The position numbers and the translations under genes were made by a program. A stretch of DNA of 21,045 bases from an uncultured bacterium. Its GTDB lineage: Bacteria; Calditrichota; Calditrichia; RBG-13-44-9; J075. The stretch covers positions 1 to 21,045 of the forward strand of contig CAXHHS010000015.1 in NCBI GenBank assembly GCA_964015645.1. The letters run 5' to 3'. Of the stretch, positions 2,815-9,389 are shown in pieces. The notes beneath the pieces are model-generated. The model was not told where the DNA came from, searched no databases, and worked only from the letters and a program-made list of their open reading frames with translations. Every line of letters starts with the position of its first letter. Within the stretch, counting starts at the first letter, position 1.

Positions 2815-3051
2815 GTGATGAAAGAATTCATAGAGCATATTGTTAAACAATTAGTAGATAAACCGGGTGATGTTCAAATAGCGGAAGTAAAAGGCGAACG
2901 TGTAACAGTGTATGAATTACGTGTGGGAACAGGTGATATCGGAAAAGTGATCGGTAAAAGAGGTCAAACGGCAGCCGCTATTCGTTTTCTTTTAAACGCA
3001 GCATCCGCAGCAAAAAATGGAAGGCGCAGCATCCTCGAAATTCTTGAGTAA
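2815..3051 (+). CDS. KH-domain RNA-binding protein (UPF0109 / YlqC-like), paralog 1
   Basis: 78 aa with VIGKRGQTAAAIRFLL: the GXXG loop (GKRG) of a type-II KH domain. Same architecture as the second copy at 9030-9389. RBS GAGGAG upstream. Confidence 0.85.
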   Translation: MMKEFIEHIVKQLVDKPGDVQIAEVKGERVTVYELRVGTGDIGKVIGKRGQTAAAIRFLLNAASAAKNGRRSILEILE

Positions 3052-3082: not shown

Positions 3083-4564
3083 ATGCCAAAATTAGGACAA
3101 GTCCTAGTTCAAACCCAATCACAAATTTTAAAACCGCAGCAAATTCTTGTTTCCAGCCTGTTGCAGCTCCCAATGTTATTGCTGGAGCAAAAAATACAAA
3201 TGGAGTTACAGCTAAACCCGGTTTTAGAAGAAACAGAAGAATGGGAAGACACACAAGAGGATGAAGAGGAAATAGACGAAGAGGAGACGGAGAAGGAACA
3301 GATTCAGGATGAATTCGAAACGCTGGAAGAAAACAATAAAAGTGAAGAAGACAAATTAAATGATGAGAGCCAGGAAGAAGTGAATCTTGAGGAGCTTTTG
3401 CCTAATGATGATGAAGACTTGCCGGAACCTCGTCTGCCGGTAGATCGTAGTGAAGAAAAACCCGACTTGCCGGAACCCAATCTAGTTACTATGTCAGAAC
3501 ACTTGCTTGATCAATTGCAACTGCTAAATTTACAAGATATAGAATTTCGCATTGGCAAATATATTATTTACAGCTTGCGGGATGATGGTTACCTGGATTT
3601 TGAAATAACCGCAGAATCAATCGCGCAGGTTTTTGAAACCTCTCCGGAAAAAGTAGAGCGAGTTTTAAAGTTCATTCAAAAACTTAACCCTCCCGGCATT
3701 GCCGCCCGAAATTTGCAAGAATGTTTGATTATTCAATTAGAATCCAAACACGAAGATGAGAAACATATTATTCCATTACTTATTCTGAAAGAATGTTACC
3801 AGGATTTTGTTAACCACCATTTTGAAAAAGTCGGCAAACGGCTTGAAATCCCTCTTGATCATGTTAAAGATGCCCTGGCAGTCATTAGTAAGTTAAATCC
3901 AAAGCCCGGTGAAGGTTACTCCGACGCCAAACGAAACTACATTATCCCCGATTTTTATGTGGAAAAAATAGATGATGAACTGGTTATATCTCTCAATGCT
4001 TATAAAACTCCTGGCCTGAGAATCAGCCATTACTACAAAAAGATGATCCGGCAGCCCAAAAAACTGGATTATGAGACCCGAAAATTTTTAAGAGACAAAG
4101 TGAATTCAGCGAAATGGTTTATAACAGCCATTCAACAGCGCCAGGTAACGATGCAGAGAACCATGGAAGCGATCGTCGACAAACAACGAGGTTTTTTTGA
4201 AAATGGCCCGGAGCACATCAAACCGATGATTATGAAAGATATTGCCGAAGAGATCGAAATGGATATTTCCACCATTAGCCGGGTTTGCAAGGGTAAATAT
4301 GTCGATATGGATTATGGTGTATTTGAATTAAAGCATTTTTTTAACGAAGGTATGGAAACCGACAACGGTGAGACATTAAGCACCTTGAGAATTAAAGAAC
4401 ACCTCAAAGAAATTATCGCCACGGAAAATCCTTGCAAACCCTACAGCGATGAAAGGCTCGCTCAAATGTTAAATAAAGAAAGTATACCAATTGCGAGACG
4501 TACCGTCGCAAAATATCGAGAGTTCTTAGATATACCGATTGCTCGATTAAGACGGAATATTTAA
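3083..4564 (+). CDS. rpoN: RNA polymerase sigma-54 factor
   Basis: C-terminal RpoN box [10 protein letters not shown]. Gln/Leu-rich N-terminal region I ([31 protein letters not shown]). A long acidic region II. HTH region [12 protein letters not shown]. Confidence 0.95.
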
Positions 4565-4586: not shown

Positions 4587-5435
4587 GTGATCAGAAGTTT
4601 TGACAACCGCGCAAACCAATCTTTAGAAAAATACCTTCAAGAAATTGGAGAAGTTCCCCTATTAACCCCGGAAGAAGAAATTAAACTGGCACAGCGAATC
4701 AAACAGGGCGATCAGCAGGCATTGCATAAATTAATCGAGTCGAATCTTCTTTTTGTGGTAAGTGTGGCGAAAGTGTATCAAAACAAAGGACTTTCTTTCG
4801 GAGATTTAATTAATGAAGGCAACCTGGGATTGATGAAGGCTGCAAAGCGGTTCGACGAAACCCGGGGATTCAAATTTATTTCTTATGCCGTTTGGTGGAT
4901 TCGCCAGGGAATTTTGCAGGCGTTGGCGGACCATCCGCGAGTCGTACGCCTCCCACTGAATCGCGTGGGCGCACTTTATAAGATTGGAAAAGCCTACTCT
5001 TCGCTGGAACAAGAGATTGAACGAGAGCCAACCGCCAGCGAAATTGCGGAGCAACTGGATATGAAAGATACTGAAGTAACGGATACCTTGCGAGTTTCCG
5101 GGCGGCATGTATCTGTGGATGCTCCTTTTAGTAGCCGCGAAGATAGCCGTTTGCTTGATGTTATTGAAAATAATCATCAACCACCGCCGGATTCGGAATT
5201 AGTCAATGATTCCTTAAGAGTTGAAATAGAACGTGCGCTCATAACGTTAACAAAGCGCGAAGCAGAGATAGTACGGATGTATTATGGCCTGGGATATGAG
5301 AGTTCCCAGACGTTAGAGGAAATCGGTGATCGCTTTAATTTAACCCGGGAACGGATACGGCAAATTAAAGAGAAAGCGCTTCGGCGATTGCGCCATGCGT
5401 CCCGCAGCAGAGCTTTACGCGCATTTTTAGATTGA
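4587..5435 (+). CDS. Sigma-70 family sigma factor, RpoD/RpoS-like (regions 1.2 to 4.2, 282 aa). GTG start.
   Basis: Region 2 [59 protein letters not shown] closely matches RpoD/RpoS region 2.1-2.4. Region 4.2 [36 protein letters not shown] precedes the GTG. The gene starts 23 nt after the rpoN stop. Confidence 0.85.
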
Positions 5436-5477: not shown

Positions 5478-6134
5478 ATGAAACAGCCTATTCACGTATT
5501 TATTGTTGACGACAATCGTTTGCTCCGTGAGGGTCTGGTTTCCATGCTGGCAGAGCAAGAAGATCTCATGGTCGTCGGCGCGGCGGCAAGTGGACGCAAG
5601 GCTTTGGAGCAAATCCGGGAGTTACGCCCGGAGGTGGCGCTTATAGACATTGGCATGCCGGAGAAGGGTGGGATTGAAGTAACCCAGGCCTTGCACCAGG
5701 ATATGCCGGAGGTCAAAGTGATTATCCTCGGTATGCCTGACTTGACAGATGAGATCATGGCCTGTATTGAGGCCGGGGCTGCCGGATACGTGCTAAAAGA
5801 AGCCTCATTCGATTATCTCGTTGAAACGATTCGATCGGCGAATCGCGGTGAATCATTCTGCTCTCCCCGCATGGCAGCTTCGTTGTTTTCCCGTGTCGCA
5901 GAGTTAGCAGGAGATCGAATACCACAAAGTTCCGTCAAACTGACACCGCGCGAGGTGGAAATTATTAACAAGATTGCCGAAGGGTTGTCTAACAAGGAAA
6001 TTGCCCAACGGCTCTCCATCGAAGTGCAAACGGTAAAAAATCACATCCATAATATTCTTGACAAGCTGCAATTGCATAACCGCCTGGAAGCGGTACAATA
6101 TGCCCGTGAAAGAAACCTGCTGAGAAAGAAATAA
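5478..6134 (+). CDS. Two-component response regulator, NarL/FixJ (LuxR-type HTH) family
   Basis: Receiver domain with acidic pocket VFIVDDN, phospho-acceptor LIDIGMP and a conserved Lys (YVLKE). C-terminal LuxR HTH (LTPREVEIINKIAEGLSNKEIAQRLSIEVQTVKNHIHNILDKL). Confidence 0.9.
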   Translation: MKQPIHVFIVDDNRLLREGLVSMLAEQEDLMVVGAAASGRKALEQIRELRPEVALIDIGMPEKGGIEVTQALHQDMPEVKVIILGMPDLTDEIMACIEAGAAGYVLKEASFDYLVETIRSANRGESFCSPRMAASLFSRVAELAGDRIPQSSVKLTPREVEIINKIAEGLSNKEIAQRLSIEVQTVKNHIHNILDKLQLHNRLEAVQYARERNLLRKK

Positions 6135-6184
6135 TAGCAGTACTAGTACTTCACCCTCCTAAAACCTCATGAATGACCATCTCC

Positions 6185-6271
6185 GGAGTAGTCCTTCCCG
6201 TAGACCATAATTGAACCTTCCGGTCTATTGTGTCGCCGTTCTAATTTGCTCATATTAAAATGGTTCACTCC
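6185..6271 (+). repeat. Direct repeat, copy A (~87 bp). About 90% identical to copy B at 6665-6751.
   Basis: ggagtagtccttcccgTAGACCataattgaaccttccGGTCTAttgtgtcgccgttctaatttgctcatattaaaatggttcactcc. Contains an internal 6-bp inverted repeat TAGACC...GGTCTA. Confidence 0.8.
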
Positions 6272-6434
6272 AGAAATGGACGCACGGTTAAGTGCGAGGT
6301 TCCAAAAGCTTATTTCAAGGGAAGGACTTATGATGATGGGGATGGGCCTCACATTTTAGAATTTGCTTTATCAGTTTTTGCCCTAATTAAATAAGCTAAT
6401 TGTAAAATTAATATGAGGCTTCAAGGAGGAGCCA

Positions 6435-6671
6435 TTGATGTGCAAGAAACCACTATCGAAGAAGTTGTTAGAGAGTAATCCGTCGTTGATTCGAAACTAC
6501 CAGGGAGTGCATCCCAACCGATTAACATTTGTTGAATTCACAGACACTTTGTCTCACTTGAGACGATTATTGGAAATTGCTCAAACTTCTCCCAAAATTC
6601 ATGGGGACCATATCCAGCCGTTAGAATCAACAATACGAAAATTTCAAAAGTTTACACCCCAAAAGGAGTAG
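6435..6671 (+). CDS. Hypothetical small protein (78 aa) located between the two direct repeats
   Basis: Good RBS (AAGGAGGAG, 6 nt spacer) before the ATG. No recognisable motif. The stop codon TAG lies inside repeat copy B. Confidence 0.35.
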   Translation: MMCKKPLSKKLLESNPSLIRNYQGVHPNRLTFVEFTDTLSHLRRLLEIAQTSPKIHGDHIQPLESTIRKFQKFTPQKE

Positions 6672-6751
6672 TCCTTTCCATAGACCATAATTGAACCTTC
6701 AGGTCTATTGTGTCGCTGTTCTAAATTGCTCATGATAAAAGGGTTCACTTG
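6665..6751 (+). repeat. Direct repeat, copy B (~87 bp)
   Basis: ggagtagtcctttccaTAGACCataattgaaccttcaGGTCTAttgtgtcgctgttctaaattgctcatgataaaagggttcact. About 8 mismatches versus copy A. The copies are 480 bp apart. Confidence 0.8.
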
Positions 6752-6877
6752 AATAGCAATTGAACTCACCATGGGAACGATTTTGCCCGGTTATTATCAT
6801 CGCTCCGAAACCGGTAATGGCGGAATTTAGGGAACATGGCGTGCAGACGCTTGTTCAGGAGAAAAGGCGACAAGTTT

Positions 6878-7234
6878 ATGAAAAAAATCAAAATATTGTT
6901 ATCGAGCCGGCCAAAGTTGTTGTCAGAAGTGATTAGAAATTTGATTGAGCATCAGCCGGATATGGAGGTGGTGGGTGAAGTGATTGACCCTATCCAACTT
7001 CTGGGAGCCGCCAGGGCGATGGCCGTGGATGTGGCCATTGTCACCCCACTGGAATCGAACGGGGAACCCAAAATATGCCGTCATTTGCTCGCAGAGTATC
7101 CATCTCTAAAAATCATAACGCTCTCGAAAAAAGGCGAAGCCGCTTACTTGTACCAATCGGGGGTTCCCAGGCTGCCTATCGATGAACCCTCCTCACAATC
7201 AGTACTTGGTACTATCCGGGAGGCCCTGGGATAA
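6878..7234 (+). CDS. Receiver-like (pseudo-receiver) domain protein, stand-alone, lacking the phospho-acceptor residues
   Basis: MKKIKILLSSRPKLL...MEVVGEVIDPIQLL...VDVAIVTPLE aligns to the CheY-like fold of the neighbouring regulator. The acidic pocket DD is replaced by SS. The phospho-acceptor Asp position (LIDIGMP in the neighbour) reads AIVTPLE. The ORF track starts at 6836, but the ATG at 6878 directly preceding MKKIKIL is the more likely start. Confidence 0.55.
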   Translation: MKKIKILLSSRPKLLSEVIRNLIEHQPDMEVVGEVIDPIQLLGAARAMAVDVAIVTPLESNGEPKICRHLLAEYPSLKIITLSKKGEAAYLYQSGVPRLPIDEPSSQSVLGTIREALG

Positions 7235-7413
7235 GTCGCTGAATATCTTGGAAGTAAATGATGGTATTAAAAAGACTAATAAGTAGGTGGACATATCTAT
7301 TTCTTAATGAAAGTTTATTGTTTTTTAAGAGCTTAGAGAAAATTAAATATCAAAATATTTTAGAACACTTACTTAAGATAAATTTTCGCTTACTAAACGA
7401 AAGGGATTATAAA

Positions 7414-7539
7414 ATGGGCGACAAAGGCAAGAAAGACCGGGAAAAGAGCCGCAAGCAAAAATCAAAAAAGAAGAATGACAAAGCGAATAAAGCTAAAAAG
7501 AAACAGGAAAAAAATCCTAAAGATACCCTGGGAGGATAA
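7414..7539 (+). CDS. Small, highly basic Lys-rich protein (41 aa)
   Basis: MGDKGKKDREKSRKQKSKKKNDKANKAKKKQEKNPKDTLGG. RBS AAGGGA upstream. The 5' part of the annotated 93-aa ORF (7258-7413) is AT-rich, low-complexity and probably non-coding. Could be a nucleic-acid-binding micro-protein. Confidence 0.3.
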   Translation: MGDKGKKDREKSRKQKSKKKNDKANKAKKKQEKNPKDTLGG

Positions 7540-7722: not shown

Positions 7723-7851
7723 ATGAGTATAATAATTATCTTTACCATATCAGCCATCCTGGCCACTATTTACATTTTTTCGTTAGTTCGTGGTGAAACG
7801 CAACGTCAGAAATCGCAGCAAAAAACCAGATTACGCAACAGAAAACATTAA
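7723..7851 (+). CDS. Candidate micro-ORF (42 aa): one hydrophobic helix plus a basic tail, ending 9 bp before the desaturase start
   Basis: MSIIIIFTISAILATIYIFSLVRGETQRQKSQQKTRLRNRKH. RBS AGGA upstream. Absent from the ORF track because it is under 60 aa. Confidence 0.25.
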   Translation: MSIIIIFTISAILATIYIFSLVRGETQRQKSQQKTRLRNRKH

Positions 7852-7859
7852 GGAAGGAT

Positions 7860-8963
7860 ATGAAGAAAGCAACTTTTCCACAACGCATCGGCTTCTATAC
7901 AGAAGTCAAGAAACGCGTGAATTACTATTTTGAGGCAAACGGTATTTCCAAAAACGCCGACTGGCGTATGGTCTTAAAAACCACAGTTATTTTAGTGTGG
8001 CTGGCGACCGCTTACGCTTTGCTTTTATTTTCTGCATCCTCTTTGATATTGGCTACTATCTCCGCGATTGCAGTAGCGCAGGGGTTCGTGCTGGTGGGGT
8101 TCAACATTATGCACGATGGCGCTCACGGCAGTTATTCAAAAAACAAACGCTTGAATTGGATCATGGGGTTTACCCTCGATCTCATTGGCGGCAGCAACAT
8201 GTTTTGGCGGCACAAACACAATATCCTGCACCACACCTATACCAACATTAACGAACTTGATAATGATATTCAGGTTTTCGGTATCCTGCGGTTTAGCCCC
8301 GAACAAGCGCGGCGGCCCTGGCACCGGTTTCAGCACTGGTTTGCCTTCCCGCTATACGGCTTGATGACCTTGCTGTGGGTCACGACCGGTGATTTTATAA
8401 AGTTTTTCACACGCCGGATTGGCGATTACAATTTGCCGAAACCTCCTGTCGCCGAATCATTCCTTTTTTTTCTCACCAAGATTTTCTATTTCGGTTATAT
8501 GCTGGTGCTGCCGATGTTTTTTCTTCCGGCACTGCATGTTCTGGCCTTTTTCCTGCTCGTGCATGTGGTCCTCGGTTTTACGATGGCCACCGTTTTTCAA
8601 TTGGCTCATATCGTGGAAGACAATGCTTTCCCGCACCCGGATCAGGATACCGGGGAAATCGATAACGAATGGGCCATTCATCAGGTGGAGACCACGGCAA
8701 ATTTTGCCCCGAAAAGCAGGCTGGCAGCATGGTATTGCGGCGGGTTGAACTTTCAGATTGAACATCACCTCTTTCCGAAAATTTGCCACATCCACTACCC
8801 TGCTATTAGCGAAATCGTCGAGCGTACCTGCCGGGAATTCCGGGTCGCTTATATTTCATACCCGACCCTGCGTCAGGCAGTCGCAGCACATTATCGCTTT
8901 CTGAGGAAGCTGGGTAGGAAAACTGGAGGCGGGATGATCGGGGCGTCGCAGGCTGTTGGATAA
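7860..8963 (+). CDS. Membrane fatty-acid desaturase (di-iron, three histidine boxes)
   Basis: His boxes HDGAHGS, WRHKHNILHH and QIEHHLFP (third box QxxHH). Several predicted TM helices. No cytochrome b5 domain. RBS AAGGAAGGA. Confidence 0.85.
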   Translation: MKKATFPQRIGFYTEVKKRVNYYFEANGISKNADWRMVLKTTVILVWLATAYALLLFSASSLILATISAIAVAQGFVLVGFNIMHDGAHGSYSKNKRLNWIMGFTLDLIGGSNMFWRHKHNILHHTYTNINELDNDIQVFGILRFSPEQARRPWHRFQHWFAFPLYGLMTLLWVTTGDFIKFFTRRIGDYNLPKPPVAESFLFFLTKIFYFGYMLVLPMFFLPALHVLAFFLLVHVVLGFTMATVFQLAHIVEDNAFPHPDQDTGEIDNEWAIHQVETTANFAPKSRLAAWYCGGLNFQIEHHLFPKICHIHYPAISEIVERTCREFRVAYISYPTLRQAVAAHYRFLRKLGRKTGGGMIGASQAVG

Positions 8964-9029
8964 CCAAATACATTGAGCTTTAATTCAGTCTACTTCGGGA
9001 AAACTCCGGAAGTTAAAAGGAGGCAGTCA

Positions 9030-9389
9030 ATGAAAGCGTTTATTGAATATTTAGTTAAACACCTGGTCGATAAACCTGACGAAGTTCAGGTTAACGAAAT
9101 CACCAGTGAACGAACTGTCGTCTTCGAATTACGCGTGGGCGACGGGGACATGGGAAAAGTGATTGGACGAAAGGGACAAACTGCCAATTCTCTCCGAACC
9201 CTTCTGGCAGTTGTCGCGGCAAAACAAGGTAAGCGGTCTTTTTTGGAGATATTGGAGCAGAATGAGACAGTACAAAAAACCCACCGATATAAACATCCGG
9301 TGAGGGAAATAACGGCCCGGAAACCTGTTTCCGAACTTCAAGCAAGCAATGAAAGACGTTGGCAGGATGATGGCGGAAATAATCTGTAA
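9030..9389 (+). CDS. KH-domain RNA-binding protein (UPF0109 / YlqC-like), paralog 2, with a ~42-aa C-terminal extension
   Basis: MKAFIEYLVKHLVDKPDEVQVNEI...VIGRKGQTANSLRTLL...FLEILE is collinear with paralog 1 (2815-3051). Strong RBS AAAGGAGG before the ATG at 9030. The ORF track's 8973 start lacks an RBS. Confidence 0.75.
   Translation: MKAFIEYLVKHLVDKPDEVQVNEITSERTVVFELRVGDGDMGKVIGRKGQTANSLRTLLAVVAAKQGKRSFLEILEQNETVQKTHRYKHPVREITARKPVSELQASNERRWQDDGGNNL

Follow-up and report, generated by a model that had tools for sequence, protein, structure and literature searches.

The window analysed here is a stretch of 21,045 nucleotides in which two short direct repeats lie between a response-regulator gene and the gene of a receiver-like protein (Table 1). 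The near genes are all on the plus strand and encode, in this order, an ERAP1_C-domain protein, a cold-shock protein, an RRM protein, a DUF6166 protein, a KH protein, sigma-54, a group-2 sigma factor and a NarL/GerE regulator; after them come copy A of the repeat, a small ORF, copy B, the receiver-like protein of 118 amino acids, a lysine-rich ORF, a fatty-acid desaturase and a second KH protein. The segment 1380-9389, which holds on one strand the cold-shock (1380-1592), RRM (1767-2057), KH (2815-3051 and 8973-9389) and sigma-54 (3083-4564) genes together with those of the group-2 sigma factor (4587-5435) and the desaturase (7860-8963), looks like a stress/cold-adaptation island, and none of these genes has the repeated element ahead of it. 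The group-2 sigma factor beside the repeats is an RpoD/RpoS-like protein of 282 amino acids and not an ECF factor. As regards the small ORFs of the neighbourhood, the lysine-rich one (7258-7539) directly follows the receiver-like gene and is kept in the related locus L002 (65-75%, tblastn), a hydrophobic one of 42 amino acids (7723-7851) is called just 5′ of the desaturase gene, and ORFs of 39-48 amino acids are called after the receiver-like gene in several relatives.

Table 1. Features of the regulator-to-pseudo-receiver region, in coordinates of the window.
Feature	Position	Strand	Evidence or remark
NarL/FixJ-type response regulator gene (receiver + GerE HTH)	5478..6134	+	Pfam Response_reg 1.4e-24, GerE 2e-19
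AGTACTAGTACT palindrome / tandem AGTACN motif, just 3′ of the regulator stop	6139..6150	.	Alignments; 1 in window vs 0.08 expected
Copy A of the 85-nt module	6185..6269	+	Left side continuous with conserved ancestral flank
Copy A, TAGTCC	6189-6194		
Copy A, TAGACC	6201-6206		
Copy A, TTGAACCTT, invariant	6211-6219		
Copy A, GGTCTA	6222-6227		
Copy A, -35-like TTGTGT	6228-6233		
Copy A, -10-like CATATT	6251-6256		
Lineage-specific DNA between the copies, 395 bp	6270..6664	+	Missing from all orthologous loci
Orphan ORF, 77 aa from ATG 6438 (78 aa from TTG 6435), AAGGAGGAG ahead	6438..6671	+	Stop inside copy B
Copy B of the module, sub-motifs of copy A at +480, -10-like CATGAT 6731-6736	6665..6749	+	Right side continuous with conserved ancestral leader
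Leader from module to pseudo-receiver gene, conserved, contains TGAATAGCAATTGAACTCACC	6750..6877	+	Alignments
Pseudo-receiver gene, 118 aa	6878..7234	+	>360 homologues, 60-92% identity

A repeat search of the window aligned both copies, of 85 nt each, as collinear and ungapped; they differ by 8 substitutions (91% identity), and their starts are 480 nt apart. The initial annotation had described a pair of about 87 bp and about 90% identity with some 8 substitutions and small indels; the collinearity and the substitutions hold, no indel was found, and the ends that it placed at 6271 and 6751 have to be moved inwards, since homology stops at 6269/6749. A core of 36 nt occurs exactly twice in the window and not once in 100 shuffles of it, and a profile HMM of the element, built from 23 related sequences, matched copies A and B only, even at E<=10, which bears out the earlier statement that the window holds no other copy. 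Further details of that description could be read directly in the sequence, namely the TAGACC-N15-GGTCTA arrangement of each copy, the TTGTGT-17-CATATT of copy A and the TTGTGT-17-CATGAT of copy B, and the stop codon of the small ORF within copy B (TAG at 6669-6671), and the distances to the downstream ORFs were also correct (165-168 nt from the end of copy A to the small ORF and 128 nt from the end of copy B to the ATG of the receiver-like gene). The repeat arrangement is not an assembly artefact, because the segment 6100-6900 recurs in three other deposited assemblies, with 100% identity in two of them and with a single base difference, at 6853 and outside the repeats, in the third, which comes from a different sample. 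Moreover, copies A and B are closer to each other (91%) than either of them is to any orthologue (maximum 84%), and the duplication is therefore recent.

The flanking genes had been named as a NarL-type regulator and a pseudo-receiver, in agreement with their Pfam domains and with the replacement of receiver residues. The upstream regulator finds its best NCBIfam match in NarL, under the cutoff of that model, and its orthologues upstream of the element are 74-93% identical; in the orthologous loci it is this gene family that the element always follows. Among the homologues of the 118-aa protein one is labelled Calditrichaceae bacterium, and a profile made from 20 of them gave a weak match to the receiver domains of CheB, Spo0A and VraR (E = 4e-4). 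In the alignment an invariant Ser-Arg stands where the acidic pair would be, and Thr takes the place of the phospho-acceptor Asp, and on account of these replacements 'pseudo-receiver' is a fair name for the predicted protein.

Related loci were reached in two ways, through homologues of the pseudo-receiver (L002, L004, L005, L006, L007, L008 and L051) and through the DNA pattern of the element core (L012, L017 and L022 from reference genomes, L034-L048 from metagenomes); the core matches in reference genomes belong to Calditrichia/Calditrichaeota MAGs. Nearly all of these related Calditrichia loci, about 20 in number, carry the element once, between the regulator and the next gene, and such single-copy loci comprise L002, L004, L005, L006 and L008, found via the protein, as well as L012, L017 and L034-L048, found via the pattern. 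In the relatives the regulator stop lies about 98 nt before the TTGAACC core, compared with 80 nt in the window, measured to the core of copy A, and in their main group the pseudo-receiver ATG lies at +184 to +187 after the core, compared with +187 from the core of copy B. Both the sequence left of copy A (AGTACTAGTACT...) and that right of copy B (...TGAATAGCAATTGAACTCACC...) are conserved in the relatives, the 395 bp between the copies have no counterpart in any orthologous locus, and the closest relative, L002, whose pseudo-receiver is 92% identical, has the uninterrupted form. Since flanks and spacings are kept at the left of copy A and at the right of copy B, and the 395 bp lack a counterpart, the window is read as the ancestral regulator-to-pseudo-receiver intergenic region split by 480 bp, which comprise an 85-nt copy and 395 bp of new DNA. 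The original proposal of a duplicated promoter/operator module gains from this comparison, the repeat unit being the very block conserved between the same genes in some 20 loci. The interval between module and pseudo-receiver has gained other genes elsewhere, encoding an sll1863-family stress protein (L004 5559-5873, L006 5568-5879 and L008 5601-5915) or two Band_7 proteins (L005 1167-3214), with no second module copy in those loci, and this interval may tolerate insertions or be prone to them.

Identity of the element to its orthologues ranges from 53 to 84%, compared with 35-64% at the fourfold sites of the adjacent regulator gene (with the exception of a single comparison, of 36 sites, that reaches 72%), and it is the higher of the two wherever both values could be obtained. 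Such conservation in excess of that at synonymous sites indicates purifying selection. The invariant columns are TAGT (6189-6192), TTGAACC (6211-6217), G-T-C (6223-6225), A-T (6227-6228), G (6230) and T (6233), and the pattern GTC.AT.G..T is invariant in the aligned loci; this invariance is partly one of ascertainment, as the pattern-found loci were preselected for TTGAACCTT...GTCYAT.GYRT and those from metagenomes also for TAGT. Identical columns are invariant in the protein-found loci L002, L004, L005, L006 and L008, and L051, which was also found via the protein and is unbiased, has TTGTACT in place of TTGAACC. Further downstream, the -10-like A at 6252 is kept in 22 of the 23 sequences, and the T at the sixth position of the -10-like hexamer in essentially all aligned hexamers, including the CATGAT of copy B; these correspond to the -11 A and the -7 T, the positions of greatest weight in a -10 hexamer. 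The -35/-10 spacing is 17 across the loci, and 16 in a distant group, in which the -35 position reads TAGCAT. The most conserved bases, those of TTGAACC and GTCYAT, lie upstream of the -35 or overlap it, and they match the site of no known factor.

Some conserved sequence is also found beyond both ends of the unit. The leader of the pseudo-receiver gene (about 130 nt) is conserved at the nucleotide level and carries, at about +3 to +16, a GTTCA-NN-TGAAC palindrome that repeats the core TTGAAC, and after it AACTCACC, which stands between short complementary arms; the breakpoint of the duplication (6269/6749) falls inside this palindrome. On the other side, the AGTACTAGTACT / AGTACCAGTACT motif stands right after the regulator stop, often twice, occupies the same position in L002, L004, L005, L006, L008 and L034-L048, and travels with the detached copies of the module described below; it may represent a further, putative binding site. 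Because only copy A retains these upstream AGTACT motifs, which are not found upstream of copy B, the two copies are regarded as not equivalent.

The best-supported reading of the 85-nt unit, and one that we hold to be reasonably probable, is that of a conserved cis-regulatory module, a promoter/operator that would have been duplicated locally. The module would consist of a sigma-70-type promoter with a weak -35 (TTGTRT-N17-CATATT), starting transcription about 7 nt downstream, and of upstream protein-binding motifs, namely TAGTCC, the inverted pair TAGACC-N15-GGTCTA and the invariant TTGAACC between its arms. For copy A the predicted transcription start falls near 6262-6264, and the duplicated unit ends about 6 nt past the predicted start site, that is, it is promoter-sized. 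TTGTGT-17-CATATT matches the consensus at 3/6 and 4/6 positions, which is below the 9/12 threshold of the consensus promoter scan and was left unreported by it. A weak -35 overlapped by a conserved site, with upstream half-sites at helical-turn distances, is the usual layout of activator-dependent promoters. Here GGTCTAT overlaps the weak -35 and related half-sites are found one and two turns upstream, from which we infer, by analogy, that the module has the layout of an activator-dependent promoter. The obvious candidate for the binding protein would be the adjacent NarL-type regulator, an assignment that we make tentatively.

Under the promoter/operator reading, an ancestral single module 3′ of the NarL-type regulator gene would drive the pseudo-receiver operon. 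In this lineage, the insertion of 395 bp, foreign or novel in origin, close to +6 of the predicted transcript was accompanied by the gain of a second module; copy A, with the ancestral upstream flank and its AGTACT motifs, now faces the orphan ORF, and copy B, with the ancestral leader, faces the pseudo-receiver. No intrinsic terminator was detected on the plus strand between 5400 and 8000, and with none between the copies, two predicted promoters in tandem probably serve the pseudo-receiver. The initial annotation had placed both downstream genes under the same control; the copies do precede both ORFs, but the small one, which has no homologue, may not be a gene.

Other kinds of promoter and operator were considered and rejected. 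A sigma-70-like match that the promoter scan flagged on the minus strand (TTGCTA-16-TATCAT, 6732-6759) is created by substitutions specific to copy B and is not conserved in the relatives. As to a sigma-54 promoter (GG-N10-GC; TGGCAC-N5-TTGC), the GG at 6222-6223 is followed after N10 by CG, and most relatives have CC. Inspected by eye, the ECF/EcfG arrangement (GAAC-N16-17-CGTT) has a spacing of N20 here, and sigma-32-type spacing does not fit. CIRCE, the operator of HrcA (TTAGCACTC-N9-GAGTGCTAA), gave no match at up to 4 mismatches in the Calditrichia loci or in the window.

The inserted DNA itself differs from its surroundings, with a GC content of 39% compared with 49-50% in the flanking genes, and comparison of its 395 bp with the fetched loci, with the rest of the window and with plasmid and phage collections gave no match. 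The small ORF within it is preceded at 5-8 nt by a good Shine-Dalgarno sequence (AAGGAGGAG), and a single-sequence AF2 model of its product is helical, with a moderate pLDDT of 73. A word-indexed search of 5.8 billion proteins returned only matches to itself, a HMMER scan of 1.84 billion representatives gave one other match (P0122), which is a junk tandem-repeat translation, and no Pfam or NCBIfam family was matched. Either the ORF is a gene of very recent or foreign origin, or it is no gene at all. It is unrelated to the ORF of about 104 amino acids found in the same interval in L004, L006 and L008, which encodes the sll1863-family stress protein.

How the duplication and the insert arose bears on a different explanation, in which the repeats are the footprint of an integration: a small DNA with its own element would have recombined in a Campbell-type event, or inserted at staggered breaks, the duplication would be a neutral by-product, only one copy would be functional and the ORF would not be a gene. 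The direct repeats do bracket unmatched DNA of lower GC content, the ancestral left and right flanks are each joined to one copy, the ORF is an orphan, the interval between module and pseudo-receiver took other genes in L004, L006, L008 and L005, and, in the manner of recombination sites, the element has inverted arms of 6-7 bp on either side of a conserved spacer. However, neither the window nor the fetched loci contain an integrase, a transposase or a donor copy, and the other lineages with inserted genes have no second copy. Besides, each copy carries about 4 derived changes without clear decay, and both retain the A and the T of the -10. We consider this explanation unlikely; it bears on how the pair arose rather than on what it does, and the promoter/operator reading could hold alongside it. 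Candidate routes to the duplication with its insert would be a Campbell-type crossover with a small DNA bearing a paralogous module, or the repair of a staggered break, both of which are possible; the 8 differences between the copies are derived in A in 4 cases and in B in the other 4, too few for a crossover signature.

A further alternative holds that the conserved unit acts as RNA, be it a small RNA, an element in the 3′-UTR of the regulator mRNA or a 5′ leader, with a functional TAGACC/GGUCUA hairpin. Formally, either copy can form the hairpin, the fold of copy A is better than those of its shuffled versions (z = -2.6), the stem of L002 is retained through G-U pairs, and the element is probably part of a longer transcript, there being no terminator between it and the regulator gene. 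Against this, the fold of copy B does not surpass those of shuffled sequences (z = 0.04), no terminator follows either copy, and RNAalifold gave 0 consensus pairs over 23 sequences. The hairpin positions are paired in 86.7% of cases, compared with 86.4% after shuffling of partners (258 of 500 shuffles were as high), and the arm variants TAGTCC, TAGTTA, TAGGCA and CAGACC are uncompensated. Rfam had no match at the gathering threshold in the whole window, and at a permissive E-value only chance-level ones in 6100-6900. Single-sequence folds of both strands did not support an RNA structure, and the leader after copy B (6750-6877) showed no consensus fold in RNAalifold. The inverted repeat is kept as a sequence and without covariation, which points to a DNA site. 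The hairpin of the initial annotation is better read as a DNA inverted repeat, and the suggestion of a pair of small-RNA genes is met neither by an Rfam match nor by a consensus fold; on balance an RNA function is improbable.

Returning to the promoter/operator reading, copies of the module outside the window add to the picture. In a complete Calditrichia chromosome, OZ245730.1 (6.28 Mb), the core occurs exactly at three places. The first (L017) comes after a NarL-type regulator and before an unannotated ORF of 134 amino acids, which is followed by an OmpA/Gly-zipper gene; the second (L022a) precedes a pseudo-receiver gene, then Transgly_assoc, OMP, OmpA and KH genes; and the third (L022b) comes after a HEAT-repeat gene. 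A search for further copies, which had been proposed from the outset, yielded in this complete relative genome these three exact cores and not dozens. That the element belongs to a dispersed miniature repeat family (MITE/REP-like) without local regulatory meaning, as had been offered as an alternative, is largely refuted and very improbable on grounds of low copy number and constant orientation: more than one copy per genome is found in at least two genomes, but there are 2 copies in 21 kb and 3 exact cores in 6.28 Mb, the other matches among 185,579 species genomes all fall in unrelated phyla and are fewer than the roughly estimated ~35 chance matches, the copies always have one orientation with respect to the downstream gene and a fixed position with respect to regulator or pseudo-receiver genes, and neither terminal inverted repeats nor target-site duplications are present.

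The genes downstream of the module in the relatives include groES-groEL (L039), two Band_7 genes (L005), sll1863-family genes (L004, L006 and L008) and Transgly_assoc and OMP genes (L038), a set which suggests a stress regulon as judged from gene content. Two detached copies, L039 (270-321) and L022a (L022 260-390), carry, outside any ORF, some 40-50 nt similar to the 3′ end of the regulator coding sequence; the first lies upstream of groES-groEL and the second upstream of a pseudo-receiver paralogue. As these copies retain a relic of the regulator 3′ end, they arose by copying of the regulator-downstream region. Such copying of the module to other stress genes in related genomes would amount to promoter propagation in a stress regulon. 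A bolder and rather doubtful extension is an undescribed Calditrichia general-stress regulon of NarL-type regulator, pseudo-receiver and group-2 sigma factor, which would grow by copying of the module and of which the window would present a very recent recruitment of an orphan gene. If this were true, the module would have been copied, at times together with a fragment of the regulator gene, before groESL, SPFH/Band_7, sll1863-like and membrane-stress genes. A literature search for stress promoters or regulators described in Calditrichia found nothing relevant. The conserved motif as such thus appears to be undescribed, whereas propagated promoters or operators are a known kind.

A duplicated module is not surprising in itself. 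Putative mobile promoters have been defined as intragenomic upstream segments of 50-100 nt and at least 80% identity that stand before non-homologous genes (Matus-Garcia, Nijveen & van Passel 2012, PMC3488235). The copies in the window, of 85 nt and 91% identity and placed before the orphan ORF and the pseudo-receiver, come within these bounds of length and identity, and in the relatives the module precedes non-homologous genes (groES, Band_7, sll1863-family and Transgly_assoc). Insertion sequences, MITEs and riboswitches do not count as such promoters, and the module has no Rfam match, a low copy number and no transposase in the window. The differences are that here the copies lie in tandem, 480 bp apart, in one intergenic region, that the source position can be named, namely 3′ of the regulator gene, of which relics accompany some of the copies, and that promoter activity is a prediction in the present case.

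The operators of NarL/FixJ regulators offer a second comparison. NarL binds heptamers (TACYYMT) in 7-2-7 and other arrangements, and DesR acts at the des promoter of B. subtilis. As in these systems, a NarL-family gene is adjacent, the half-sites TAGTCC, TAGACC, GGTCTA and AGTACT occur as direct or inverted repeats upstream of a weak -35 or overlapping it, and fatty-acid desaturase and cold-shock genes are found near the module. However, the half-site is not TACYYMT (the best, TAGTCCT, has 6/7 positions), the inverted pair is 15 bp apart, compared with the 2 bp typical of inverted NarL heptamers, a kinase gene is missing from the immediate neighbourhood, the element is not ahead of the desaturase, and binding here is putative. 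Regulon-wide sites for stress responses are also well established, such as CIRCE-HrcA at groESL and GGAAC-N16-17-CGTT, the EcfG site of the alphaproteobacterial general stress response. The module is similar in that one motif precedes chaperone, membrane-stress and RNA-binding protein genes, beside sigma-factor and receiver-domain genes, but CIRCE is missing from the module loci, GAAC and CGTT are 20 nt apart here, and the neighbouring sigma factor is group-2 RpoD/RpoS-like rather than ECF.

The element ties the regulator/pseudo-receiver pair to genes of chaperones, membrane stress and RNA-binding proteins, and with TTGAACC, the TAGWCC half-sites and the -10 box it is a well-delimited cis-element, open to testing, in a phylum whose experimental genetics has hardly begun. 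The locus is moreover a clean natural case in which the duplication of a predicted promoter goes with the arrival of new DNA, and new genes can come under regulation in this way. A different kind of doubling is found in L007, where the TTTGAACC core is repeated in tandem (TTTGAACCCCTTTTGAACCCTCCGGTCTATAG, 2970-3015); the regulator gene upstream of it is broken into two ORFs, possibly by a frameshift.
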